From positions 1-45,391 of IMG/VR virus record IMGVR_UViG_2778261297_000007: a DNA stretch of 45,391 nt. The stretch is one strand, 5' to 3'. This DNA is from a virus (Duplodnaviria; Heunggongvirae; Uroviricota; Caudoviricetes). Shown here piece by piece: positions 5,779 through 45,391 of the stretch. The notes under the pieces are model-generated. The model was not told where the DNA came from and did no database searches. It saw nothing but the letters and a program-made list of their open reading frames with translations. Every line of letters starts with the position of its first letter. Positions within the stretch are counted from its first letter, which is position 1. A program made the translations under genes and the position numbers.

Positions 5779-6951
5779 CTACAGAGCTGCTGAAATGGCG
5801 GTTTTCCCGTCGTATTCAGCCAGGTATTTACCGTAATTGCGGAACAGCATTTCCGGCCCTTTATGCCCCATCTGCCCGGCAAGCCAGAAAAGGTTTACGC
5901 CCTGGCTAATGTGTCTGGTGGCGAATGTGTGGCGGGTCTGGTACGGGTTACGGTATCGAACGCCAGCTTTTTTGAGGGTTGGCACCCATGCTTTTTTTCG
6001 TATTGCGTCGGCGTTCGCCCAGGGCTCTCCCGTTTTAGGGTCGCTGAAAATAAACTCGCTTTTCATGAAAGTGAATTGTTTCTGCGCCTGCAGCGCGGCC
6101 AGCGCCTCGCTGTTTAATTCTACTTTACGGGTACCGGCTTTTGTTTTGGTGCCTTTCAGAACGCCAACAACACTCGCCGCCTGAACGTGAGCTGTTTTAG
6201 CGATATTGTCGAGATCAGGCCAGCGCAACGCACACAGCTCAGAGCTGCGTAAACCTGTATTGAATGCGAAACGGAACAGGTTTTCCCATTCCGGATAACT
6301 GCAGCTCTGGTAAATGGCGCTGATTTCCGCTGGTGTGAACGGATCAACTTCGTAATCGTCACTATTCGGGCTGCTGTCGATCACGTGGTACCGACTCGCG
6401 CTGACAAGGGTTACCGGGTTGATAGTCAGCAGGCCGTCTGTCACCGCTTCATCTATGGCGCTGCGCAGAAACGAGAGGTTATTCCTGATTGTTTTCAGCT
6501 TTGTTTTTCTGCTGGCGATCCAGTTTTTGAGGACCGCAGGGGTCAGTTCCGATACATGCATTTTGTGCAGCGCAGATAGCGCAGACAGGCACTTTTCATA
6601 ACCGCCAATAGTGGACGGCGAAAGGTTGCGGTTCTGGCAGATTTTCAGATACTCGTCCAGGTAGGACTTAATATTTTTGGTTTTCTTCACTACCCCGAAC
6701 AGCTCCAGTTTTTTGGAGGTGGGGAAGTATTTCGCATAATCGAATGTGCCGCCGGCGATCTGATTCTGTATCTCCCCCAGCAGGCGCTCGGCATACTTCA
6801 CGCCGCGCGCGTTTGCTTCCATTCTGGAAAGGGGCTCCCGGCAGAGAACCCCCTTGTAGGTGAATGTGATCACCAGGGTGTCGCCAGTTTTATGCTGGCG
6901 AATGGTTACTCCTCTTGGGAGAGATAATGATCCTTGTTCTTTCTTGCCCAC
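5779..6951 (-). CDS. int: Phage tyrosine integrase
   Basis: 390-aa ORF with C-terminal tyrosine-recombinase region (...RHTFATRHISQGVNLFWLAGQMGHKGPEMLFRNYGKYL); adjacent to att repeat and followed by an excisionase-like gene. Confidence 0.85.
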   Translation of the reverse strand: MGKKEQGSLSLPRGVTIRQHKTGDTLVITFTYKGVLCREPLSRMEANARGVKYAERLLGEIQNQIAGGTFDYAKYFPTSKKLELFGVVKKTKNIKSYLDEYLKICQNRNLSPSTIGGYEKCLSALSALHKMHVSELTPAVLKNWIASRKTKLKTIRNNLSFLRSAIDEAVTDGLLTINPVTLVSASRYHVIDSSPNSDDYEVDPFTPAEISAIYQSCSYPEWENLFRFAFNTGLRSSELCALRWPDLDNIAKTAHVQAASVVGVLKGTKTKAGTRKVELNSEALAALQAQKQFTFMKSEFIFSDPKTGEPWANADAIRKKAWVPTLKKAGVRYRNPYQTRHTFATRHISQGVNLFWLAGQMGHKGPEMLFRNYGKYLAEYDGKTAISAAL

Positions 6952-7115
6952 TTTGAAACCTCCGTTAAGTCTATCCAGCGTTCTTTAACGCCATCGACTT
7001 TTAATACATGGACACCCTCTTTCCATAACCCCCTTTGTATCCGTTTGTTAACGGCTTCAACCGTTTCTCCGGCGTCCCGGCAGTAGGTTGAAAGTGGTAC
7101 GCAATCAAGACTCAT
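6906..7115 (-). CDS. xis: Excisionase-like protein
   Basis: Small basic protein (MSLDCVPLSTYCRDAGETVEAVNKRIQRGLWKEGVHVLKVDGVKERWIDL...) immediately upstream of int and overlapping its start; start chosen at the internal ATG 7115. Confidence 0.6.
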   Translation of the reverse strand: MSLDCVPLSTYCRDAGETVEAVNKRIQRGLWKEGVHVLKVDGVKERWIDLTEVSKWARKNKDHYLSQEE

Positions 7116-7389
7116 GACCGACCTCCCGCCCGAATGCCTGGGCATTTTCCAGTTCATTTGCCGCATAGATAAGTGCGTTGTGGTGCGCTCTAAAACCGCC
7201 ATCAAGTTCGCTGGCCGCTCTCTTGCGCAAAAAATCGATTGCAGCCTGATAGTCTTCACTGGCTGGCAAATCTCCCACGAGCATCAGCATGTTTTCCGGG
7301 TCGACAGGGATGGTGGTGAGCCCCAGCTGCTTGGCCTTCGTTGCCAGACGGGTCCAACGCTTAATAATTTCTGAAACTGGCTTATTCAT
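7105..7389 (-). CDS. Hypothetical early protein
   Basis: 94-aa ORF with RBS; overlaps the xis start by a few nt (operon-like packing). Confidence 0.4.
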   Translation of the reverse strand: MNKPVSEIIKRWTRLATKAKQLGLTTIPVDPENMLMLVGDLPASEDYQAAIDFLRKRAASELDGGFRAHHNALIYAANELENAQAFGREVGHES

Positions 7390-7400
7390 GGAGCGCCTCG

Positions 7401-7496
7401 CTACCTCACCAAAAATTTATATTCAATCAGCGCGCCGATAACGGTGGCCGCCAGTAGCAGGGAAACAATGATGCTGAAAGTGAAGGGCTTCATCAT
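7401..7496 (-). CDS. Small hydrophobic peptide (31 aa, single predicted TM helix)
   Basis: MMKPFTFSIIVSLLLAATVIGALIEYKFLVR with AGGGG RBS; below the ORF-track size cutoff, found by manual translation. Confidence 0.3.
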   Translation of the reverse strand: MMKPFTFSIIVSLLLAATVIGALIEYKFLVR

Positions 7497-7906
7497 TTCA
7501 CCCCTGCTGGTTTGATGGCCTGCAGTGCATCAACCTCTTTAACGAATCGGTCATGCATCGCGTCCCATTTCTCACACCATTTCTCCATTTCTCGCTTGCG
7601 CGCCAGGATGCGACGCAGACGGCGAACACAACGCTGGTGGGCGGCCAGATACTCAGCCTTTGTTTCCCCGTCTCGCCATACTTCCCTGTCATCGCGATCA
7701 ATACGCACCCGCGGGTGACGCTGCGCAAAACCTGAACGCTCAAAAGCCTCGGTGGTCATGAAGAAAGCCAGATAGCGGATCGCCGTATCTCGCGTGAAGC
7801 ATTTTTTGATACGACCGTGGCGTACTGCCACGAACAGTGGGCCAACTGGCGTATCGTGTTTCTGTAATGCCAGGTCAATCATGCTTACGGTGCGCTTATC
7901 GTTCAT
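7493..7906 (-). CDS. Hypothetical early protein
   Basis: 137-aa ORF in the early-left operon; no domain recognised. Confidence 0.4.
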   Translation of the reverse strand: MNDKRTVSMIDLALQKHDTPVGPLFVAVRHGRIKKCFTRDTAIRYLAFFMTTEAFERSGFAQRHPRVRIDRDDREVWRDGETKAEYLAAHQRCVRRLRRILARKREMEKWCEKWDAMHDRFVKEVDALQAIKPAGVK

Positions 7907-8124
7907 TTCCGGTCCTTAACTTTGCTGTATCGTTCGTGACTCATTACTTCCCAGTTCTTTCCGCCATCGCGGGAGAGTAGCCGCCAGCGGTGATTAACCT
8001 TGAGGCTCAAATTACCGGAGCCGTGCATACGGCAGGGGTGAATGCGCCTTGCTCTGAACTGGCTTAAAACGTGTGCTGCTTTGAGGTGAACCCACTCAGG
8101 AATTCGTATCGCTGTAAGTGCCAC
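7903..8124 (-). CDS. Hypothetical protein
   Basis: 73-aa ORF translationally coupled to neighbours. Confidence 0.3.
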   Translation of the reverse strand: MALTAIRIPEWVHLKAAHVLSQFRARRIHPCRMHGSGNLSLKVNHRWRLLSRDGGKNWEVMSHERYSKVKDRK

Positions 8125-8350
8125 CAGCTACCTCCTCAAATCTCAGCTCCATTTCGCGCGCCATTTCGATAAATGTGGCCAGTGAGCAAATGTGCTCGTC
8201 GTCGAACAACCGGCGGTCGCATATCACCCTCCCGTTCTCGATGTGCAGGACTACCCGCCCGGTAAAATCAGGGAGGACATGCAGATCCACGTTCAACACG
8301 GGGCGGGGGATCAGCACACCCTGATAGAGCATTGTTTGTTGGTCAGCCAT
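8096..8350 (-). CDS. Hypothetical protein
   Basis: Start placed at the internal ATG (MADQQTMLYQ...) preceded by a GGAG RBS. Confidence 0.35.
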   Translation of the reverse strand: MADQQTMLYQGVLIPRPVLNVDLHVLPDFTGRVVLHIENGRVICDRRLFDDEHICSLATFIEMAREMELRFEEVAGGTYSDTNS

Positions 8351-8708
8351 TGCCGATCTCCGCATTAACTGGTTTCTGCTTTTTGACGAACTCAACCAGC
8401 TCAGAAATGAGCTCGTCGATTAATTCCTTTCCGCTATTTGTGAGGAATTCACCGCTGCCATTAACATCAACAGAGCTGCTGTAAATCCCCTTAATAGCTT
8501 TTACACCTTCGACATTTCCGTACTCACTGATCGCGAGCCTTTCGAATTTTCGTAATAATCCATCGAGAAGAATCTCTGTTAACTCGACCGTGTTAATACC
8601 GCCTTTATTGAGCTTAATAACAAGGCAGTTACTGCCCGTTTTACGCTGGTGGCGTAATAACGCTGCCTTTAAAATTCGGCGGCGATATGTCTCGATTAAT
8701 TTATCCAT
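8343..8708 (-). CDS. Hypothetical protein (AT-rich)
   Basis: 121-aa ORF; no domain recognised. Confidence 0.4.
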   Translation of the reverse strand: MDKLIETYRRRILKAALLRHQRKTGSNCLVIKLNKGGINTVELTEILLDGLLRKFERLAISEYGNVEGVKAIKGIYSSSVDVNGSGEFLTNSGKELIDELISELVEFVKKQKPVNAEIGNG

Positions 8709-8925
8709 TGCGGCGAACCTCCTCCTCTAAGCTCATAACAATTTCCTCTTCTTTTTCGGTCCAATCATTAATTTCTCCAGCAATGTCATAAACAAGAGAG
8801 CAAATAGTTTTAAGTTGGAAATGGTCCAGTTTGTCGTGATATTCAAATAATGCTTGCGTCAAGCCTGACAACTTCTCCGCTTTGATATTCACTTCCTGAA
8901 TATCCTGTCTTTTTAAAACACCCAT
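8701..8925 (-). CDS. Hypothetical acidic protein
   Basis: 74-aa ORF overlapping the downstream start. Confidence 0.35.
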   Translation of the reverse strand: MGVLKRQDIQEVNIKAEKLSGLTQALFEYHDKLDHFQLKTICSLVYDIAGEINDWTEKEEEIVMSLEEEVRRNG

Positions 8926-9031
8926 AATTAACGACCATATGCTTTTTTAATATAAAGACGAGCGATTACCTCGTAACCGCAGGCTGCATAAAGGCATGCT
9001 GTTCTGTATGCCGTCTTATCCTTGATGAAAG

Positions 9032-9424
9032 TCATACGAAGCGCCTCACAGCCAAAGAAGCGACTACCCGACCGTGAATTTTGATTTCTTTCTGTTCATT
9101 GGTGTTGAGGGTGAAAGTTTCGTAATGATGGTTATCTGAGATGATTTTTAATGAGCCATCAGCTAATGGCTCGATTCTCTTAATGAAAAGGCATGGGCGA
9201 CCAAAAGCATCCATTGTGTAAACATAAATGCCAGAGGTAAGCGCACGTCCACCGCAATCAACGAAAGCCACAACCTCACATGGTTCTATGGTCGGCTGCA
9301 TTGAATCACCTTCCATCCGGCAGCTTTGAACGCGGTTGCCAAAGTCATTAATGTTGTCAGATCCGAACAGCATTTGAGGTGTTTTAACTGGCTGATTAAT
9401 TGCGACGGAATTTTGCATTTTCAT
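9032..9424 (-). CDS. S24 (LexA/UmuD-like) peptidase-domain protein without HTH
   Basis: Contains the GDSM(QPTI) serine motif and a downstream Lys (FIKRIEP) typical of S24 self-cleaving peptidases; only 130 aa, no DNA-binding domain. Confidence 0.55.
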   Translation of the reverse strand: MKMQNSVAINQPVKTPQMLFGSDNINDFGNRVQSCRMEGDSMQPTIEPCEVVAFVDCGGRALTSGIYVYTMDAFGRPCLFIKRIEPLADGSLKIISDNHHYETFTLNTNEQKEIKIHGRVVASLAVRRFV

Positions 9425-9484
9425 TTCCTAAGGGTGAGTTTGTCCCCACCAAGAAAGGTGTTAATTAAATAATGTTAATTAATT

Positions 9485-9916
9485 TTAAATTTTGTCGGCT
9501 TGCTTGCAGATGGTTTCTTGCAAGTCGTCTAATTTTTCATAAACGATAGTTAGTGTACCGATAGCCGACAATTCCGGAGGCATGCAATCCATAGCGTTAG
9601 ATAAAGCCATTCTGCAATTGCCAATATCAGCAGACCATGAGTTAAGTTGATTGGACGTTATAATACTTGTTGGTTCTGTAAATTCACCGCACTGCTCGTT
9701 GCCTGAAATGAGCCACAGAACATCAGAATGAAGAATGTTAGCCAATTGGATTAACTGGTCAGCAAACGGAACTGTTTTTTCCGTTTCCCAGTTGTTAATG
9801 GTTTCGGTTGTTAAACCAAGATGATCAGCCAAAAAATCCTGAGAGAGTCGAAGCGAAGATCTTTGATTTAATATTCTTTTGCCGATGGTTTTGGCTACGG
9901 TGATTTGAGTATTCAT
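9485..9916 (-). CDS. XRE-family HTH transcriptional regulator
   Basis: N-terminal HTH (ILNQRSSLRLSQDFLADHLGLTTETINNWETEK) and first gene after the PL-like promoter/operator. Confidence 0.55.
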   Translation of the reverse strand: MNTQITVAKTIGKRILNQRSSLRLSQDFLADHLGLTTETINNWETEKTVPFADQLIQLANILHSDVLWLISGNEQCGEFTEPTSIITSNQLNSWSADIGNCRMALSNAMDCMPPELSAIGTLTIVYEKLDDLQETICKQADKI

Positions 9917-9948
9917 TTCATTGGCTCCGTTGTTTGCCGATGAATGAA

Positions 9949-9982
9949 CTTTAAGTCACGCAATAACTTATTGCAATAACAA
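9949..9982 (-). promoter_or_regulatory. PL-like promoter with operator repeats (TTGCAATAAC / AATAACTTATT)
   Basis: On the minus strand: TTGCAA -35, 17-bp spacer, TAAAGT -10; overlaps direct repeats GCAATAAC-TTAT-TGCAATAAC that share the AAGTTATT core with the cI-cro operators. Confidence 0.35.
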
Positions 9983-10065
9983 AACTTATTTTTATTTTGC
10001 AATTTGGTTTAATGCATTGATTTTTCTGATTAAATTTTATTGTTTTACTGCATGTATACAGCTAT

Positions 10066-10096
10066 TGATAAAGAAAAAGCCGCTTTTCAGCGGCTT
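10066..10096 (-). terminator. Rho-independent terminator downstream of cI
   Basis: Hairpin aagccgc-ttttca-gcggctt followed on the minus strand by a T-rich run. Confidence 0.45.
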
Positions 10097-10117
10097 CAAA
10101 AGGTGTGGTGTTGAAGG

Positions 10118-10816
10118 TTAGAGCCTATTGTAATTGATTGATTCGTGCATTATGGCTTTACCCATCACGTAAAGGTCATCCTGGTTTTCTTCCGTGATAT
10201 ACCATTTCTCATATGCTGGGTTATCCGATAACACTGCTAGCCTGTTTCCCTGCATCTGGAGTCGTTTTAGGTGAAATGTTTTACCAAAAACAAAGACATA
10301 TACACCATCTGTTAGAAAGTGTCGGACGGAAATGTCAACGAAGACACGATCACCGGAATTGAATGTGCTGGCCATGCTGTCGCCATTGACTGTCATTACT
10401 TTTACGACATCTTCACTACGATTTCCAAAAAGGGATTTTGCGTGTTCAGTAGTGAACTCTATAGCATGTAAAACCTCAACATATTCTGAAAGCATAAACG
10501 TGCCAGGCCCAGCACTCACCGAAAGGTCAAGAACTTCGACCCTGAATATGCCAGCGTTATCCTTTACTTCCCTGTCGGGCATAGTCTCTATCACATACCC
10601 CTGTCTGTGGGGTACATGATTTTTCCCGGTAGAAAGCCATTCAGGGCTTACACCCAGCGCATTCGCAATCTCAACCAGCTTACGTGTTGTGTTGGTTTTG
10701 CCTGCAACAAGGCGCCAGATAGCTGGTTGCGAAACCCCAACTTTCATCGCTAATTCTGCCTGTGTAAGGCCAGCGTCAACCATCGCTTTTTGAAGACGAT
10801 CTGAGAATGTGTTCAT
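10118..10816 (-). CDS. cI: CI-like repressor (HTH + S24 peptidase)
   Basis: N-terminal HTH (LTQAELAMKVGVSQPAIWRL) plus C-terminal S24 domain with GDSM motif and Lys (FHLKRL); divergent from a cro-like gene. Confidence 0.8.
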   Translation of the reverse strand: MNTFSDRLQKAMVDAGLTQAELAMKVGVSQPAIWRLVAGKTNTTRKLVEIANALGVSPEWLSTGKNHVPHRQGYVIETMPDREVKDNAGIFRVEVLDLSVSAGPGTFMLSEYVEVLHAIEFTTEHAKSLFGNRSEDVVKVMTVNGDSMASTFNSGDRVFVDISVRHFLTDGVYVFVFGKTFHLKRLQMQGNRLAVLSDNPAYEKWYITEENQDDLYVMGKAIMHESINYNRL

Positions 10817-10925
10817 ACCAATAAGCCTATACAAAAAGTTATTAAGTGGCAAATACGATAAGTTATTGCATAAAGTTATTCAAGGTTATACTCTTTCCTT
10901 GTGTTCAATAACTTTTGGTATTTTT
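10817..10925. promoter_or_regulatory. Divergent cI/cro promoter-operator region with four AAGTTATT operator half-site repeats
   Basis: aaagttattaag, aagttattgcataaagttattcaagg and inverted caataactttt; candidate -10 TATACT at 10888-10893 for cro. Confidence 0.55.
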
Positions 10926-16690: not shown

Positions 16691-16767
16691 CGGCCCTTTA
16701 GCTCAGTTGGTTAGAGCGTGCGACTCATAATCGCCCGGTCGCTGGTTCAAGTCCAGCAAGGGCCACC
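16691..16767 (+). tRNA. tRNA-Ile2 (CAU, ileX-like; may score as tRNA-Met)
   Basis: Cloverleaf with anticodon loop CTCATAA; close to the E. coli ileX sequence as recalled; ends in CCA. Confidence 0.7.
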
Positions 16768-16769
16768 AG

Positions 16770-16844
16770 ACCGCCACTAGCTCATCGGGAAGAGCGGCAA
16801 CCCAGGTGTTGTGGTACGGGGTTCGAGGCTCCGGTGGCGGACCA
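16770..16844 (+). tRNA. tRNA-like sequence with anomalous anticodon arm (possible pseudo-tRNA or unusual tRNA)
   Basis: Good 7-bp acceptor stem, D arm and T arm (TTCGAGG loop), CCA end; by hand-folding the anticodon loop is 6 nt (CCAGGT), so the anticodon is unresolved. Confidence 0.4.
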
Positions 16845-16846
16845 CT

Positions 16847-16922
<76 letters not shown>

Positions 16923-16925
16923 TAT

Positions 16926-17000
<75 letters not shown>

Positions 17001-29923: not shown

Positions 29924-32900
29924 ATGGCGGCTCTACGCGAATTAATAATTAAAATCTCTGCGAACTCTCAGTCCTTCCAGACTGAGATAGCTCGCGCCTC
30001 GCGAATGGGGGCGGATTATTACCGAACCATGCAAAATGGTGGCCGACAGGCTGCTGCCGCAGCGCGTGAAAGTGAAAGGGCGCTGTCAGAGCTTACCAAT
30101 GGATTTGCGTCAGCAGGAAAAGCTGCAGCAGCTGCTAGCGCAGCGTTTGCAACTGGGAAAATTGTGCAAATTGCTGATGAGTGGAATTCAGTAAACGCTC
30201 GTCTTAAACAGGCATCATCTTCAGCAGATGATTTTGCTGCCTCTCAGCGCCAGTTAATGGAAATTAGCCAAAGAACAGGTACTGCGTTTTCAGATAACGC
30301 AAACCTTTTTTCACGTGCAGCTGCTTCAATGCGTGAATATGGTTATAGCTCAGATGAAGTTCTGAAGATTACTGAAGCTGTTTCTACTGGCCTCAAACTT
30401 TCTGGGGCTAACACTCAGGAAGCGAGTTCTGTTATTACTCAATTCAGCCAGGCCTTGGCGCAGGGCGTTCTTCGCGGTGAAGAATTTAACGCCGTTAACG
30501 AAGCAGGTGATCGCGTAATCCGTGCTCTTGCAGCCGGAATGGGCGTCGCGAGAAAAGACCTGAAGAGCATGGCTGACCAGGGACAGCTTACGATTGATAA
30601 GGTTGTTCCAGCATTGGTAAGTCAGCTAGATAATCTTCAAAGTGAGTTCAAAAGCTTACCACAAACGGTTTCTGGTTCTTTGCAGAAGGTTACTAACTCA
30701 TTCATGCAATGGGTTGGAGGTATTGATCAGGCTACCGGCGCAACGGCAGGGTTGTCTGGTGGGCTGGATAGTTTAGCTCAAACTCTGGACGCGTTCACTT
30801 CTTCAGCTGTTAGCGGTGCCTTGAACGACGTTGCTGACAATATGTCCACTATCACAACAGTTGCCGGGGCACTTGTTGGCGTTGGGCTAGCTCGATACCT
30901 TAGCGGGGTGGCGACAAGTGCCACGAGTGCAACAGGTGCGCTAATTTCAGCTGCGAAATCAGAGGTTGCGCTTGCTGTCGCACAGGACAAAGCTGCTCTG
31001 TCTGCTGTTGCAGCTTCAAGGGCTGAAGTTTATCGTGCTCAGCAAGCCGTGCAGACCTCGCGTAGCGCAGATGTTCAGGCTGCTCAGCAAGAGAAAATTG
31101 CCGCAGCAGAAGCAAAGGTTACAGCAGCTCAAGCCAGGCTGACTACTGCTCTTGCAACTGGTACCGCTACGGAAAAAGTCAGGGCCAGAACAGCTCTTGA
31201 GCGTGCTCAGGCAAGCCTTGTTGCAGCCAAAAATGCTGATGCTCAGGCCGTTTCTGAAAGGCGCCTTGCTGCTGCTCAGGCTGCCTTAAGTCGTAACCTT
31301 GCAAACCGTGTTTCAGCTCAAAGCAATCTCAATAGCGTTACATCAGTAGGCTCACGCCTTATGGGTGGGGCACTCGGGCTTATTGGTGGCGTGCCCGGGT
31401 TGGTAATGCTTGGGGCCGGTGCCTGGTATGCGATGTACCAAAACCAGGAGCAGGCCCGTCGTTCTGCCCAGGAATACGCCAGTCAAATTGACGAAATTAG
31501 AGAAAAAACATCCCGAATGTCTTTGTCGGAAACAGACGACAATAGGGGGAAAACTGTTGGTGCCCTAGTTGAGCAAAATCGCCTGGTTGATGAGCAATCC
31601 AGAAAAGTTGGTGAGCTGAAAGCTCAAATAGACGATTTGAATGCTTCTCGCGGCAAACCAGGTATTACCAGCGAGAACGATGCAAATATACTGAGAGCGA
31701 TAGCTATTGTTACGGATCAACTTGCTGTTGAAGAGGGAAAATTAAATGACATGCGAGATAAATCTCGCGGCATACAGCAGGCTCTGGAAGAAATTGAACG
31801 GCGTCGTAATGATTTAATTCGCGAACAAGCCTGGCGACAAAATGCGGTATATCAGTCGATGATCATGATGAATGGTCAACATACTGAATTTAACCGCCTG
31901 TTAGGGCTTGGCAATCAACTCCTTATGGTTCGCCAGGGGCTTGCTAATGTTCCGCTCAGACTTCCTCAGGCAGACCTCGACAAAAAGCAAACTGATGCTC
32001 TCGAAAAGAGTCGCCGGGATCTGGAGTTGTCACGCCTGAAGGGTGAGGCCAAAGAGCGCCTGCGTCTGAGTTATGCAGCCGATGACCTGGGGTTAACCAG
32101 TGATCCGCAATTCCAGACAGGCCGTCAGGAGTTGATTGATAACGGTCTTGCTGAATGGCGGAATAATGAGGCCAACAAACCTAAGGCGAAGGGTGGTAAA
32201 ACCGAAGGCGAGAAAACCGAGGATGTGTATAAGCGCCTTATCAAGCAGCAAAAAGAGCAGATTGCCCTGCAAGGCCAGAATACTGAACTGGCGAAGGTTA
32301 AATACCAGGTCAGCCAGGGCGAACTTGCTTCTCTGACAGAAGCCCAGAAAAAGACGGTATTGCAGAATGCTGCGCTGATTGACCAGGTTAAATTACGTGA
32401 GCAACTGCGAAATTACGAAGCCAACCTTGCTGACAGTAACGCCAGCGCCCGCGCAGCCAATGAAGCGCAACTGCTGGGCTACGGGCAGGGCTCCAGGTTC
32501 CGTGAAAGACTTCAGGAGCAGTTCAATCTGCGTAAGGAGTTCGAGCAAAAGAATACCGATCTTCTCCGCCAGCGTCAGGCTGGTGAAATCGACGAGACGT
32601 TCTATCAGCAGGGACTGGCACTTAATAAGCGCTATCTCGAGGAGCGTCTGCGCGACCAGGAGGGATATTACGCAGCTTCTGATGCGCAGCGTGACGACTG
32701 GATGACGGGACTGTCTGAGGGTTATGCGAACTGGGTGGACGAAGCTACTGACTATTCTTCCATGGCCGCTGACGGCATGAAGCAGGCTATGGGGGGCGCG
32801 GTCACCACGATCACCGACATGCTCAATGGCAACGTTGACAGCTGGAAGGACTGGGGCGTCAGCGTACTGAAGATTATCCAGAACGTGCTGGTGAATATGG

Positions 32901-35837: not shown

Positions 35838-38800
35838 ATGACGACGACGATCATCAAAGGCCGCGGTAAAGGTGGCAGCAATCAGACCCGAACACCCGTT
35901 GAAGCACCGGACAGCATTCAGTCCATTGCAAGGGCAAAGGTGCTGATTGCGCTTGGAGAGGGTGAGTTCGCTGGCGGGCTTGATGGTAAAAACATTTTTC
36001 TTGGTGACTCATCTTCGTACACGCCTCTTCAGAACGCCGACGGAAGTTATAACTTCAATAATGTGAAATATGAGTTCCGTTCCGGTACTCAGGACCAGGA
36101 CTACATTCAGGGCTTCCCCGGCATTGAAAACGAACTTCAGGTTTCATACGAGCTGAAACAGGCTGTGCCGTACGTGCGCGCGGTATCCAACACGCAGCTC
36201 TCTGCGCTGCGAATTCGCCTGGGATGGCCAACTCTCTTGCTCCAGAAAAACAACGGCGACAAAGTCGGCACCCGCGTCGAGTATGCTATCGATCTGTCGG
36301 TAGATGGCGGGCCGTATGAAACGGTGGTTAACGGTGCTGTCGATGACAAAACCACGTCGCTTTATGAGCGCAGTCACCGCGTTAACCTTCCAAAATCCTC
36401 GACTGGCTGGCAGTTACGGGTTCGCAGAATCACGCCGGATTCCACGAGCGTGAATATCGTGGACACCATGCGCGTTGTAGCTGTAACTGAAATTATTGAC
36501 GCCAAACTTCGCTACGTTAACACAGCGCTGCTGTATGTAGAGTTTGACGCAAAGCAGTTCCCTAATGGCATTCCTCAGGTTGTGTGCAATCCGAAGGGGA
36601 GAATCATCCGTGTACCTGATACCTACGATCCTGAAACCCGCACTTACTCTGGTACATGGGAAGGTGTGTTTAAATGGGCATGGACGGATAACCCAGCCTG
36701 GATTTATTACGACATCATTCTGAACGAGCGTTTCGGGCTGGGGCAAAGAATCGATGCGACTCAGATAGACAAGTGGGAACTTTATCGCATCGCCCAGTAT
36801 TGCGATCAGCTGGTACCAGACGGCAAGGGCGGCAGCGGGACGGAGCCGCGTTTTCGTTGCAACGTTTATATCCAGGACCGTAATGACGCCTGGACCGTAC
36901 TTCGTGATCTGGCGGGTATATTTCGCGGCATGACGTACTGGGGTGACAATAAGATGTATGTCCTGGCTGATATGCCCCGCGATGTGTGGCATATCTATAA
37001 CCACGCCAGCGTAGTTGAGGGTAAATTTACCTTTGCGGACCCGAGTGAAACCACCCGAAACACTGCCGCGCTGGTGAACTGGTCAGACCCTGCCAACCAC
37101 TACAAAGATACGCCTGAGCCTGTTTACGATAGCGATCTGGCCATGCGCTTCGATTATCGTCAGCTCGAAATGACTGCGATCGGCTGCACCAGGCAGTCAG
37201 AGGCAAACCGGCGGGGGCGCTGGGCGCTGCTTACCAACGGTATCGGCGAGGTGGTGACCTTCAGCACAGGCATGGACGTCCCCCCTGTTGGTGAGGTGAT
37301 CGGCGTGGCTGCTAACGAGCTGGCCGGAAGAACTATCGGCGGCAGGGTGAGTGCGGTTAACGGCCGCAACATAACCCTCGATCGCGCTGCTGATGTGAAA
37401 GCCGGTAACAGGCTGTTTTTGAATCTTCCGTCAGGCACAGCTCAGGCCAGAACCGTCCAGGCCGTTAACGGAAACACAGTCACTGTCACCACACCCTACA
37501 GCGAAACGCCGGAGGCTGAATGTAACTGGGGTGTGGACTCTGACGATCTGTTTATAGCGCTTTTCCGTGTTACGGGAACGCGGGACAACAACGACGGTAC
37601 TTTCGAGGTCACCGGGACGACTTACAACCCTGATATCTATTCCGCTGTTGATACCGGCGCAAGACTGGACGAGCGGCCAGTCAGTGTCATTCCGCCAGGG
37701 GTTCAGGCTCCCCCAGGAAATATCGTCGTAGACAGTTACTCTACGGTTAACCAGAACATTGCGATTACCACCATGCGCGTTGCCTGGGATGCTGTTCAGG
37801 GTGCAGTTGCGTACGAGGCGGAATGGCGGCGTGACAGCGGCAACTGGATTAGTGTGCCACGAACGTCTTCTCTCGGCTTTGAAGTGCAGGGTATCTACTC
37901 GGGTCGCTATCTGGTCCGCGTCAGGGCGGTGAACGCCAGCGACGTTTCATCAGTGTTGGCGACATCACCAGAAGTAAATCTTACGGGTAAAGTGGGCAAT
38001 CCACCGAAGCCGGTTGGCTTCATCGCTTCTGAAAATGTGGTTTTCGGCATCGAGCTGAACTGGGGATTCCCGGCGAATACCGACGACACGCTGAAGACGG
38101 AAATTCAGTACAGCCTGACCGGAACCGAGGACGATGCGATGCTGCTGGCCGATGTGCCTTATCCGCAGCGCAAATATCAGCAGATGGGGCTTAAGGCTGG
38201 GCAGATTTTCTGGTACCGCGCGCAGCTGGTGGACCGCAGCGGAAACGAATCAGGGTATACAGACTTTGTGCGCGGGCAGGCCAGCATCGATGTATCCGAT
38301 ATCACCGATGCAATCCTGGAGGATATGAAAGAGTCGGAAACGTTCAAAGACCTGATCGAGAACGCGGTGGACAGCAACGAAAAAATTGCTGGCATGGCTA
38401 ACGATATCAAACAGGCCAACGACGAACTGGAGCAGCAAGCGAAAGATATCGCCAAAAATGCCCAGGACGTCGGGAAGGTTCAGACCAGCGTTAATGAGCT
38501 TTCCAGCACGGTCGGGAATGTTTCGTCTTCACTCAGTCAGCTTGAGCAGACCGTTGCGACGGCTGATACCGCCCTGGGCCAGCGAATCGACAACATCAGC
38601 GTTTCTATGGACGGCATGACGGGCGGGGTGAAGAACTCTGCTATCGCAATTATTCAGGGCAACCTGGCGCAGGTAGCCGCGCGTAAAACGTTGTCTGCAT
38701 CTGTAGCAGGGAACAGCGCTCAGCTGGACCGTCTCGACGAGGTGATCGTCAGTGAGAAGGAAGCCACAGCACGTTCATTGCTGAGCCTGCAGACGGACGT

Positions 38801-41786: not shown

Positions 41787-42379
41787 TGATACCTGTTTTT
41801 GATGAAAATGGGCTGGCTACAGTGCCGGGCGATATGCGTTGTTTTTATTATAATGCAGTAACGTATGAATATACCGGCTGGTCTGATGAATATATTAATA
41901 CTGGCGTAAGTATACCCGCCTGTTCCACTGGTATTGACCCGGGCGAAAACATCCCGGGAAAAGTGGCAGTATTTACGGGTAAGGGATGGAGCCATGAAGA
42001 AGACCATCGCAATGAGACCGTTTACTCAACTGAAAATGGCGCAGCTGTTACAGTGGATTATATCGGTGCCATCAAAGACGGTTATGTCACGCTTTCACCG
42101 TTAACGCCATACGATAAATGGGATGGTGAGAAATGGGTGACGGATACCGAGGCACAGCATAGCGCCGCAGTAGAAGCGGCAGAAGCACAGCGCCAGTCGC
42201 TGATTGATGCTGCAATGGCTTCCATCAGTCTGATTCAACTGAAATTACAGGCTGGGCGGAAGCTGACGCAGCCAGAAAACACCCGACTTAACGCTGTGCT
42301 GGATTACATTGACGCGGTGACGGCAACAGATACCAGCACAGCGCCGGACGTCATCTGGCCTGAACTGCCGGAGGCGTAG
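41786..42379 (+). CDS. Tail fibre assembly protein (Tfa)
   Basis: 197 aa immediately after the fibre gene. Confidence 0.7.
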   Translation: MIPVFDENGLATVPGDMRCFYYNAVTYEYTGWSDEYINTGVSIPACSTGIDPGENIPGKVAVFTGKGWSHEEDHRNETVYSTENGAAVTVDYIGAIKDGYVTLSPLTPYDKWDGEKWVTDTEAQHSAAVEAAEAQRQSLIDAAMASISLIQLKLQAGRKLTQPENTRLNAVLDYIDAVTATDTSTAPDVIWPELPEA

Positions 42380-42794
42380 ACCATTCAATATCTGGCGCAC
42401 CGGAAGTATCGACCAGTTCCAGTGCGTCCAGATAATCCAGCCACAAATTATATTGCGCCAGTTCCTCACCTTTCAGACGACCAATTGATGCTTTACCTGG
42501 CCATTGTTTACTGTTTATGTATTCGTTGGCCTGGTTAATCAATTGCTGCTTTTTAGTTTCGGCTGATGCAATTTGTTCTTCACGTGTTGGTGGAGGAATA
42601 TCTGCCCATGCAGGCAGTCCATCCTCTCCGACACATCTGTATTTTCCTTCTGGTGGTGTATCATAGAAATATTCCCTGAAAATTACTTCGTCTATATCAA
42701 CACCTTTTTCTTCAGGCCATTCACCTTTTTCAACATAAAGAGACTGAAGTTCGTAAGGATATGCCAGGTTGTTTACGTACAGATATTTCATCAT
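42351..42794 (-). CDS. Alternative tail fibre assembly protein (Tfa') in invertible segment
   Basis: 147 aa convergent with tfa; C-terminal region similar to the + strand Tfa (…GAPD(V/I)(I/E)W…). Confidence 0.65.
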   Translation of the reverse strand: MMKYLYVNNLAYPYELQSLYVEKGEWPEEKGVDIDEVIFREYFYDTPPEGKYRCVGEDGLPAWADIPPPTREEQIASAETKKQQLINQANEYINSKQWPGKASIGRLKGEELAQYNLWLDYLDALELVDTSGAPDIEWSTPPAVQAR

Positions 42795-43147
42795 TACCAG
42801 CCCTTAGCGAAAAACGCACCACCTTCAAGACCATAATTGCAGTGAGCTATGAAGCCGGTAGTGCTCCAGTTGGTCGCCCCCCACATATTCCCGCCCCCGA
42901 AACCACCATCGCACACAATTACAATGCCCGGTGTCTGTGTAAATGGAATCGGGAATGAAACATTGGCGGATACAGGCCCGTGTTCACCAGGAAAACTAAT
43001 TCGTCCCCACTGTTCAATTGAACCATCTGGCATTTTTCGCCAGCCTGAACCTGATGCATATGATGACATATCAGGTATCTGATTTTCCCCTGTTCCCACA
43101 TTCCGTTTTGCCGCTTCTCCCAAACCAACCTTTTTTATAACCATCAA
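42794..43147 (-). CDS. Alternative tail-fibre C-terminal segment (expressed as fusion after inversion)
   Basis: Reads through the right crossover repeat encoding VGLGE, the same residues (LGLGE) encoded at the left repeat in the fibre gene; the first 6 codons lie outside the invertible segment. Confidence 0.55.
43114..43128 (-). repeat. Inversion crossover site, right
   Basis: cttctcccaaaccaa = reverse complement of 41254-41268; ~40 bp upstream of the invertase gene. Confidence 0.6.
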
Positions 43148-43199: not shown

Positions 43200-43754
43200 A
43201 TGATTTACGGTTATGCCCGAGTATCAACAAACCACCAGGACACTGAATTGCAACTAACGGCGCTCAAGTCAGCGGGTTGTGAGAAAATTTTTGAAGAGCA
43301 TGCCAGCGGGAGGAAATCGAATCGGCCGGTTCTAAAACGGCTCATCGCCACTATGCAGCCGGGGGATGAACTGGTGGTCTGGAAGCTGGACAGGATAGGC
43401 CGCAACGTTCTGCATGCGCTGTTGATGTTCCAGCAGTTACAGGAAAAGGGTATCAACTTCCGCAGTATTACCGATGGCGTGGATCTCAAAACAGCCAGCG
43501 GCCGCTATAACTTTCGTAACATCCTTTCCGCAGCACAATATGAATCTGATCTTAATAGCGAACGTACCTTAGCAGGGCTGGCCGTAGCCAGGGCAAAAGG
43601 GCGAGTTGGTGGTCGCAGGCCTAAGTTCACGGATGAGCAATGGGCACAGGCTGGGAGATTAATATTAAACGGCGTGGATAGAAAACAAGTGGCAATAATT
43701 TATGATGTCGCTGTATGCACGCTTTATAAAAAATTTCCGGTGGGACAGGCTTAA
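43200..43754 (+). CDS. Serine recombinase, DNA invertase (Hin/Gin/Pin/Cin family)
   Basis: N-terminal catalytic motif MIYGYARVSTNHQDTELQ (Ser in YARVST) and C-terminal HTH; next to the inverted repeats. Confidence 0.85.
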   Translation: MIYGYARVSTNHQDTELQLTALKSAGCEKIFEEHASGRKSNRPVLKRLIATMQPGDELVVWKLDRIGRNVLHALLMFQQLQEKGINFRSITDGVDLKTASGRYNFRNILSAAQYESDLNSERTLAGLAVARAKGRVGGRRPKFTDEQWAQAGRLILNGVDRKQVAIIYDVAVCTLYKKFPVGQA

Positions 43755-43796: not shown

Positions 43797-44060
43797 TTAT
43801 CCATTCTGCCGTACAGTTGGAAATTCAGACGTCAGCCACATGTCAGATTCATCAAACATTTCCTCCAGCATACGGTTCAGCTTTTCCCGATCACTTTTGC
43901 TGGCATCACTATTTAAGCCGTTCGCCTGCATCGGCTTCACTTTCACCTCGGCATCAGGGAAAATCTGGTGCACCCGCTTCGTCAGCTCGGCCAGAATAAT
44001 TCCTCTGGCCCCTTCAAGCCCCTCTACATTGCGTTTGTCATAAACCAGTTCAACGAACAT
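43797..44060 (-). CDS. dinI: DinI-family (MsgA-like) protein
   Basis: 87-aa acidic protein with DinI-like architecture; two LexA boxes immediately upstream. Confidence 0.7.
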   Translation of the reverse strand: MFVELVYDKRNVEGLEGARGIILAELTKRVHQIFPDAEVKVKPMQANGLNSDASKSDREKLNRMLEEMFDESDMWLTSEFPTVRQNG

Positions 44061-44077: not shown

Positions 44078-44121
44078 CACTGTGATTGTATACAGTATTT
44101 TTACTGTAAAAATAAACAGTG
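44078..44121 (-). promoter_or_regulatory. Two tandem LexA (SOS) boxes upstream of dinI
   Basis: cACTGTgattgtatACAGTA (44078-44097) and TACTGTaaaaataaACAGTg (44102-44121), both CTGT-N8-ACAG. Confidence 0.6.
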
Positions 44122-44331: not shown

Positions 44332-44694
44332 TGGTGGAGCTGGCGGGAGTTGAACCCGCGTCCGAAATTCCTACATCCTCGGTACTACATGCTTAGTCAG
44401 TCTTTACATTCGCTTGCCAGCTGCGGACGGACACGCCACTAACAAACTAGCCTGATTAAGTTTTAACGCTTCAACCCCAGGCAGGGCTTCCACGCGATCT
44501 CTTTTGGGTTTGACCTCTCTTGATCCCCGTCCTAAGAGCGGAGGCTAGGGAGAGAGGGCTCTAAGCAGGTTATTAAGCTGCTAAAGCGTAGTTTTCGTCG
44601 TTTGCGACTATTTTTTGCGGCTTTTTACGAGGCCAACCGCCCCTCGGCATGCACCTTGGGTTTCGCAAATCCCGTCGAATCCAGAATCAGCCCC
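44332..44694 (-). ncRNA. ssrA: tmRNA (SsrA)
   Basis: Reverse complement begins GGGGCTGATTCTGGATTCGACGGGATTTGCGAAACCC and ends ...GGACGCGGGTTCAACTCCCGCCAGCTCCACCA; contains the tag-template region (...AAACGACGAAAACTACGCTTTAGCAGCTTAA). Confidence 0.9.
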
Positions 44695-44908: not shown

Positions 44909-45391
44909 TTAACGGTGGGCGTTTTTCATGATACGCGCTTTATCCACCTGCCATTCGCGTTCTTTGATGTCTGAACGTTTATCGTGCTGTTTCTTACCTT
45001 TGGCGACGCCGATTTTCACTTTGCACCAGGCATTTTTCCAGTATAGGGAGAGCGCCACTACGGTATAGCCTTCTCGATTGACGCGACCGTACAATGAGTC
45101 CAGTTCGCGCTGGTTGAGAAGTAACTTGCGGGTACGGGTAGGATCGCACACCACATGCGTGGAGGCCACGGCCATTGGCGTGATGTTAGCGCCAAACAGA
45201 AATGCCTCTCCGTCACGCAGAAGGACGTAGCTGTCGCTGATATTGGCTTTTCCTGCGCGCAGGGATTTAACCTCCCAGCCTTGCAGGGCAAGTCCCGCTT
45301 CGAACTCTTCTTCGATAAAGTATTCGTGACGGGCGCGCTTGTTAAGCGCGATGGTCGCTGAACCAAGTTTATGTGCTTTTTTCTTCGTCAT
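44909..45391 (-). CDS. smpB: SsrA-binding protein SmpB
   Basis: 160-aa protein [29 protein letters not shown]... directly upstream of ssrA on the same strand; start codon is the last 3 nt of the window. Confidence 0.9.

Follow-up and report, generated by a model that had tools for sequence, protein, structure and literature searches.

S24 peptidases are the textbook self-cleaving switches, with LexA, CI and UmuD as examples. The C-terminal fragment of LexA cleaves other LexA molecules in the laboratory, the cleavage of UmuD is intermolecular, and precedents for the cutting of a separate molecule have reportedly been described. To our knowledge, enzyme-on-substrate action of this fold is only known from engineered fragments and UmuD dimers. 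A phage-encoded S24-domain protein, HumD, is said to exist in phage P1. Two-gene modules, in which a helix-turn-helix (HTH) repressor is combined with a dedicated protease, are known from ImmR/ImmA of ICEBs1, CapH/CapP and DdrO/IrrE; there, the proteases are metallopeptidases and the pairs are co-inherited. Here we describe two neighboring genes of a prophage of the Caudoviricetes (IMG/VR record IMGVR_UViG_2778261297_000007), of which the whole stretch of 45,391 nucleotides (nt) analyzed is referred to as the window. The first one encodes a free-standing S24 peptidase domain (S24-only protein), the second one, located directly upstream, an XRE-type HTH protein of 143 amino acids (aa) (HTH-143).

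The S24-only protein resembles the C-terminal fragment of CI and LexA in its Ser-Lys dyad and its GDSM...KR motifs, and its start corresponds to that of the cleaved fragment. Its identity is 32% to the C-terminal domain of the CI of the window and 34% to an Aeromonas P2-like repressor. Unlike these fragments, it has its own gene and ribosome-binding site, contains neither a DNA-binding domain nor a cleavage site, and its gene is located in the lytic early-left operon and not in the immunity locus. With UmuD′ and HumD it shares the layout of a small free-standing S24 domain without N-terminal tail, but it falls outside the UmuD sequence family, and no link to umuC was seen, the window not having been scanned for umuC. 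The family is already cataloged, as the S24-only protein belongs over its full length to PHROG 6201 and to the RefSeq "S24 family peptidase" of Enterobacteriaceae prophages; the name of the former implies a repressor, whereas no DNA-binding domain is present. As in ImmR/ImmA, CapH/CapP and DdrO/IrrE, an XRE HTH gene adjoins a protease gene, and HTH-143 is modeled as domain, linker and domain. In contrast to these modules the protease belongs to the S24 type and the two genes are not inherited together. HTH-143 is similar to the small XRE repressors DicA and RstR in its N-terminal HTH match and its size, but with 49 bits stays below the 101-bit cutoff of the NCBIfam DicA subfamily and carries a separate conserved hairpin module, which is also found on non-HTH proteins. 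Full-text literature searches did not yield any functional study of a free-standing CI-type S24 phage protein.

Results

The sole Pfam match of the S24-only protein is Peptidase_S24 (PF00717; E = 7.8e-9, 35.7 bits compared to a gathering score of 23.3). In addition, residues 1–129 match positions 1–120 of the PHROG 6201 profile (121 positions, labeled "CI-like repressor") with an E-value of 2.3e-41. No HTH or other DNA-binding domain was matched in Pfam, PHROG or NCBIfam scans, in agreement with the initial annotation, which had described a separate S24 gene without such a domain. As the Shine-Dalgarno sequence AGGAA abuts the first ATG of the gene and the database homologs are 128 aa long, translation probably starts at position 9418.

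A BLASTP comparison aligned residues 28–121 with residues 130–222 of the CI of the window (32% identity), placing GDSM on GDSM and IKR on LKR. A MAFFT alignment was calculated in which the S24-only protein and two family members were combined with LexA, UmuD and lambda CI, four phage CIs serving as bridges. The UmuD sequence used was validated by its identity of 79% to phage genes annotated as UmuD. In this alignment the dyad is intact: Ser41, the serine of the GDSM motif, and Lys82 align with Ser119/Lys156 of LexA, Ser60/Lys97 of UmuD, Ser149/Lys192 of lambda CI and Ser147/Lys184 of the CI of the window, and the invariant columns comprise Gly39, Ser41, Met42, Lys82 and Asn98.

In the same alignment, the column of the Ala-Gly/Cys-Gly cleavage site is not covered by the S24-only protein, the N-terminus of which aligns just after the Ala-Gly site of CI, LexA and UmuD. 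Likewise, residue 9 pairs with residue 85 of the Aeromonas P2-like repressor, a few residues past the SAG motif of the latter. Neither in the sequence nor in the alignments was any Ala-Gly or Cys-Gly present within residues 1–40, i.e., upstream of Ser41. The protein therefore corresponds to a post-cleavage repressor fragment, for which no canonical self-cleavage is to be expected, and the idea of a self-cleaving peptidase in the initial annotation does not hold. Judged by its sequence, the S24-only protein is derived from the C-terminal domain of a repressor.

AlphaFold2 models and Foldseek matches were, for both proteins, used for the fold class only. The model of the S24-only protein is of mediocre quality (predicted local distance difference test, pLDDT, 71). 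Its top matches are the C-terminal domains of LexA and of phage 186 CI, and a chain of the RecA-LexA complex is among its structural neighbors, all matches being weak (E = 1e-3 or worse). Searches against PDB sequences with the single sequence or with a 17-sequence profile of the family returned nothing useful, and hhalign gave no meaningful alignment with single sequences of LexA, UmuD and lambda CI, the family profile being shallow. A weak similarity was found to TIGR02754, the free-standing nickel superoxide dismutase maturation protease (E = 2e-4). PADLOC yielded no match to any known defense system.

A homology search for the S24-only family found 146 clusters at 90% identity, almost all of them 128 aa long and none with a homolog longer than 152 aa, from Enterobacter, Citrobacter, Kluyvera, Salmonella, Escherichia, Lelliottia and Kosakonia. 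In an exhaustive profile search just six 50%-identity clusters fell below an E-value of 1e-30, and the further matches were mostly repressors of 200–250 aa. Across 61 distinct proteins of the family, Ser41 and Lys82 never vary. Even the most distant free-standing members (43–60% identity; P0158, P0160, P0162) keep the GDSM and KR dyad motifs, and the length of 125–129 aa is held down to 43% identity. The counts out of 80 loci given below refer to 80 related IMG/VR viral contigs that carry the S24-only gene. There, 78 of the 80 copies are intact; disrupted copies are known from L047, L048 and phage CharmingMan. The median ratio of non-synonymous to synonymous substitution rates (dN/dS) is 0.084 at a median dS of 0.52 (1535 pairs). 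By these measures, the S24-only gene is functional and under strong purifying selection. The homolog of Cronobacter phage ENT39118 (L084; 62% identity; positions 31718–32104 of its record) is accompanied by a separate UmuD-like gene (50% identity to E. coli UmuD; 37707–38087).

The protein keeps an identity of 88–100% although the adjacent CI belongs to one of at least four strongly differing types, which are 100%, 42% or 37% identical in the C-terminal domain or undetectable by BLAST. One of these classes seemed to lack the S24 domain, but this was a BLAST miss, as Pfam detects S24 in all four CI types tested (and an HTH domain in three). Identity between the S24-only protein and every co-resident CI C-terminal domain is in the range of 27–36%, which makes a cognate poison subunit for CI dimers unlikely. 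Going by these sequence comparisons, either a target that is itself conserved or some generic motif would be the better explanation.

The initial annotation had proposed that both genes form a split repressor pair. In the 80 loci, the gene upstream of S24-only is an unrelated non-HTH gene of ~97 aa in 43 cases, HTH-143 in 33 and something else in four, so that HTH-143 is missing from 47. Of 44 IMG/VR loci with full-length HTH-143, 42 have an S24-only gene next to it on the downstream side, while it is cleanly absent from the other two (L159 and L160). None of 12 loci in which the C-terminal domain of HTH-143 is attached to a non-HTH protein has the S24-only gene. The ~97-aa gene occurs without an S24-only neighbor in 12 of 67 loci, and among 14 species-representative prophages with the 121-aa early-left gene five carry S24-only. 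An unrelated gene of ~97–101 aa replaces the HTH gene in phages Fostie and CharmingMan. Distant S24-only members (43–62% identity; ENT39118, L088, L089) have the ~97-aa type and never HTH-143 upstream, where upstream sequence is available. Diverged HTH-143 homologs (56–83% identity), which occur beside several CI and replication modules, all precede the S24-only gene. This asymmetry could be due to plain linkage or to a one-sided dependence. No fused HTH-S24 protein was found among the close homologs of either gene. As the two genes occur separately in this survey, S24-only is regarded as an optional cassette, while HTH-143 and the ~97-aa gene alternate in a variable slot. It is thus very probable that HTH-143 and S24-only are two independent genes and not a split repressor. 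The layout of the group is pL/OL, the variable slot with HTH-143 or the ~97-aa gene, and then the conserved early-left module, with S24-only as an optional gene at its head.

The ~97-aa gene was also considered as substrate of the S24-only protein, but was rejected as it contains no conserved Ala-Gly or Cys-Gly and is found without S24-only. The same applies to the 35-aa open reading frame (ORF; MTFIKDKTAYRTACLYAACGYEVIARLYIKKAYGR) directly downstream: as partner or substrate it was dismissed since its Cys-Gly is not conserved and since it occurs without the S24-only gene. The ATG of this ORF overlaps the stop codon of S24-only (ATGA). It is conserved at the protein level down to 50% identity without any Pfam or PHROG match, and it is commoner than S24-only, being present in related phages which do not have the latter.

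HTH-143 was confirmed to be an XRE-HTH protein, with matches above the cutoffs to HTH_19 (32.0 bits; cutoff 30.2), Phage_CI_repr (29.5; cutoff 22) and HTH_3 (26.9; cutoff 23) over residues ~8–76 (E = 1e-7 to 5e-6). The match to the DicA subfamily covers only the HTH (positions 3–71), and the RstR model also matches over the HTH only, below its cutoff. The AlphaFold2 model (pLDDT 67) consists of five HTH helices (~3–70), a low-confidence linker (71–87) and a two-helix hairpin (88–111 and 118–142). Foldseek returned generic XRE domains only, and PADLOC generic HTH matches only. The hairpin is the best conserved part of the aligned sequences, with Cys101 and Cys111 being invariant. The linker holds Cys76-Gly77 within Gln-Cys-Gly, like the cleavage site of UmuD; this Cys-Gly is retained in nine of 11 full-length aligned sequences and lost in P0149 and P0128. 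Most simply, HTH-143 is a small dimeric DicA/RstR-style XRE regulator, which shares its promoter with S24-only, is independent of it and occupies the variable slot.

The C-terminal hairpin of HTH-143 (~85–143) is found with 64–85% identity fused to an unrelated non-HTH N-terminus in P0151–P0154, L090–L092 and L166–L177 (PHROG 27579 and 6882), the phages concerned having no S24-only gene. This domain swap recalls the SinR/SinI pair, and by analogy one protein could antagonize the other.

Both genes were confirmed to be located at the head of a leftward operon under control of CI operators, as seen from the operator cluster and the gene order. The operator motif ATAASTTATTGCA has nine sites at up to two mismatches compared to 2.1 expected, a number that none of 100 shuffles reached. 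Seven of the nine are located at 9959–9975 or at 10830–10916 (cI/cro intergenic region), an inverted repeat of 30 nt (80%) joins 9962–9991 to 10851–10880, and the palindrome GCAATAAGTTATTGC lies inside the OL-like cluster. While the operator repeats of the initial annotation are thereby supported, its promoter was less evident: the consensus promoter scan gave no site at threshold. By eye, a candidate pL, TTGCAA-17 nt-TAAAGT (9976–9948), can be recognized, which agrees with eight of 12 consensus positions and is below the threshold of the scan. The described position behind the cI terminator was also corroborated, as a hairpin with T-run was found there. Just past this terminator an imperfect palindrome, CTGTATACATGCAG, is present at 10047–10060 on the minus strand. 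It was rejected as LexA box because its spacing, CTG-N8-CAG, is 2 nt short of the canonical CTGT-N8-ACAG, and no canonical LexA box was found around 9900–10120.

In a DNA alignment, a leader of ~45 nt (ACACCTTT..GGTGGGG..CTCACCC..AGGAAA) precedes the S24-only gene, whatever gene is upstream. Its predicted hairpin covers the Shine-Dalgarno sequence (−11.8 kcal/mol; z = −1.65, which is weak). The alternative upstream genes switch ~45–50 nt ahead of the start codon of S24-only, i.e., at the 5′ edge of the leader. In L159 (2933–2998) the same leader comes after HTH-143, and the 35-aa ORF adjoins it immediately, with the S24-only gene being absent. Hence, the S24-only gene behaves as a cleanly inserted or deleted cassette.

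The features of the locus are listed in Table 1. The complete CI with HTH and S24 domain, which had been noted initially, was verified by Pfam; its catalytic residues were read from the BLASTP and multiple alignments, and Ala102-Gly103 is its probable cleavage site, as judged from the sequence. Downstream of S24-only small ORFs are densely packed as far as the excisionase-family and integrase-like ORFs. The matches of the early-left ORFs are limited to HTH, S24, ParE_like, excisionase-family or PHROGs of unknown function. No N-like gene was recognized in Pfam and PHROG scans of these ORFs, which agrees with the initial annotation but is a weak negative, N being short and divergent. Escherichia phage LMessi is 91% identical across this region and contains the same HTH-143 and S24-only genes, and proteins identical to HTH-143 come from Enterobacter hormaechei. 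The prophage is of an Enterobacter-type host, and its group is related to phage LMessi and to phage ENT39118 (Hendrixvirinae). Full-text searches found no literature on phages LMessi, Fostie or CharmingMan.

Table 1. Features of the early-left region of the prophage, with positions in the window.
Feature	Position	Strand	Basis
cI, complete repressor, 232 aa	10118–10816	−	Pfam HTH_3 (4e-10) and Peptidase_S24 (2e-16); PHROG 4 (6e-56)
Terminator-like hairpin, 9-bp stem and T-run, right after the cI stop codon	10076–10097	−	Terminator scan
AT-rich spacer between the cI terminator hairpin and HTH-143	down to 9917	−	
OL-like operator cluster and candidate pL	9948–10003	−	Repeats computed; promoter inferred
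HTH-143, XRE HTH ORF, 143 aa	9485–9916	−	Pfam, PHROG
60-nt spacer between HTH-143 and S24-only, four in-frame stop codons	9425–9484	−	Sequence
Conserved leader ahead of the S24-only gene	9425–9470	−	DNA alignment
S24-only ORF, 130 aa (PHROG 6201); start probably 9418, giving 128 aa	9032–9424	−	Pfam, PHROG
35-aa ORF	8928–9035	−	Conservation among related phages
Early-left module: 74 aa (PHROG 8959), 121 aa (PHROG 1737), 99 aa (PHROG 340), 73 aa (ParE_like, PHROG 1525), 137 aa (PHROG 1886)	7493–8925	−	
Excisionase-family ORF, near the end of the downstream small-ORF run	6906–7259	−	
Integrase-like ORF, end of the same leftward run	5779–6951		

Several further observations concern the module and the remainder of the prophage. 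The 73-aa ORF of the early-left module (7903–8124, minus strand) contains a ParE-like toxin domain (PF24732, E = 2e-20) and is kept in this module in all related phages; an antitoxin is not obvious. The prophage also contains a cluster of four tRNA genes at 16692–17000 (plus strand), namely those for Met, Thr and Gly and one of undetermined type. A Hin/Gin-type serine invertase (Resolvase and HTH_7; 43200–43754, plus strand) lies beside ORFs at 42351–43147; if these are tail-fiber genes, an invertible host-range switch would be possible. A DinI-family gene (43797–44060, minus strand; Pfam DinI, E = 6e-21) at the end of the prophage is preceded by two perfect, LexA-box-like CTGT-N8-ACAG sites (44080–44095 and 44104–44119) and, by its sequence, looks like an SOS-controlled RecA modulator. 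The tmRNA gene ssrA (44332–44694, minus strand) and a SmpB-like ORF (44909–45391, named by reading its translation) are also within the window. As both adjoin at its end, the prophage appears to be integrated beside ssrA.

Discussion

Tentatively, we favor the idea that the S24-only protein is a peptidase which is made only once repression by CI is lifted and which acts on another protein, perhaps on the linkers of repressors. As its gene is located behind CI operators, no expression is expected in the lysogen, and the protein would be made only on infection or derepression. Being without an own cleavage site and without a DNA-binding domain, it would most likely cut another protein in trans. 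Of the conceivable substrates, the likeliest would be S24-type repressors with an Ala-Gly or Cys-Gly in their exposed linker, i.e., the own CI, co-resident CIs or host LexA. Cutting of repressors might then reinforce lytic commitment with no need for RecA. Trans proteolysis of repressor linkers is preferred because the dyad is kept at all sampled divergences and because this fold is known to be able to cut a second molecule. The fully specified version of this proposal, a stand-alone and RecA-independent phage S24 protease which cuts repressor linkers in trans (in the own CI, co-resident CIs, LexA or at Cys76-Gly77 of HTH-143), has to be considered unlikely.

Several points weigh against such a peptidase. 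In vitro, S24 domains cleave other molecules only slowly. The model is weak around the active site, its pLDDT dropping below 50 at residues 35–41, and gives no reliable catalytic geometry. Around two thirds of the species-representative prophages with the module have no S24-only cassette, which shows the gene to be dispensable. Moreover, a protease that destroys CI early in infection would bias the phage away from lysogeny. Finally, the conservation of the dyad could reflect the native shape of the cleft for binding, e.g., of RecA*.

The last point leads to the rather unlikely possibility that the S24-only protein is a non-catalytic mimic or decoy, which imitates the cleaved C-terminal fragment of a repressor and acts by binding. 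It could occupy activated RecA filaments and thereby damp the cleavage of LexA, CI and UmuD, or it could form mixed dimers with the C-terminal domains of LexA or CI. The extent of the protein, which is exactly that of the post-cleavage fragment, fits with this idea, as do its top structural neighbors, the C-terminal domains of LexA (including the RecA-LexA complex chain) and of phage 186 CI. The same prophage has the DinI-family RecA modulator preceded by LexA boxes, so that tuning of RecA would be a recurring theme, and conservation across heteroimmune phages would suit a target in the host, for example RecA or LexA. In contrast, neither the dyad nor the GDSMxPTI motif varies in family members of as little as 43% identity, although a pure binder needs neither of them. 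Indeed, the C-terminal domain of phage 186 CI has lost dyad and motif residues. Mixed dimers with CI are unlikely given how widely the C-terminal domains of the co-resident CIs vary and how low their identity to the S24-only protein is.

Of similarly limited probability is a trans-acting peptidase directed against a host or phage protein other than a repressor, with an accessory, takeover or anti-defense role. S24-only is an optional cassette of patchy distribution that heads an early operon, a pattern typical of accessory genes. The weak similarity to TIGR02754 and the lack of a known function for the neighboring genes are also consistent with this view. Yet, PADLOC did not match the protein, its nearest relatives are all C-terminal domains of phage repressors, and no conserved companion substrate accompanies it, as both the 35-aa ORF and the ~97-aa gene also occur without S24-only.

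A split system of substrate and protease, in which the linker of HTH-143 is cut in trans at Cys76-Gly77 by the S24-only protein and which would be the strongest version of the proposal in the initial annotation, is very unlikely. The modeled architecture of HTH-143, an HTH, a flexible linker and a helical dimerization hairpin, would be suitable, the UmuD-like Gln-Cys-Gly lies in the linker with its Cys-Gly being mostly retained, and S24-only follows nearly all full-length HTH-143 genes, including the diverged homologs beside different CIs. This co-occurrence can, however, be accounted for by adjacency. Furthermore, more than half of the S24-only loci and all distant members examined are without HTH-143, L159 and L160 have HTH-143 without S24-only, and no fusion of both is found among close homologs. 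P0149 has lost the Cys-Gly like P0128, but still precedes the S24-only gene.

A role as UmuD′-like or HumD-like accessory subunit of the host translesion polymerase V is suggested by the shared layout of a phage-encoded S24 domain without N-terminal tail, but is highly unlikely. The S24-only protein does not match PRK10276 at E-values up to 0.1, whereas the neighboring CI does. The hhalign probability against UmuD is 0.3% (with a shallow profile) and the identity to UmuD is ~15%. In addition, phage ENT39118 contains an S24-only homolog as well as a separate genuine UmuD-like gene. That S24-only is a functionless, decaying remnant of an old immunity region is hardly credible: although it has its origin in a repressor C-terminal domain, is dispensable in many relatives and is disrupted in a few copies, this reading is strongly disfavored by the low dN/dS, the 78 intact copies, the length kept down to 43% identity, the own Shine-Dalgarno sequence and the conserved leader.

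For the annotation of this family, it follows from the lack of a DNA-binding domain that the pipeline label "CI-like repressor" is misleading, and to annotate S24-only and the neighboring HTH gene as one split repressor would be wrong. A free-standing S24 domain with an active site under selection and without an own cleavage site would be a natural test case for a trans protease or a RecA/LexA decoy in the decision between lysis and lysogeny. If the S24-only protein does cut in trans, such a protease would lock in induction or cross-induce neighboring prophages.

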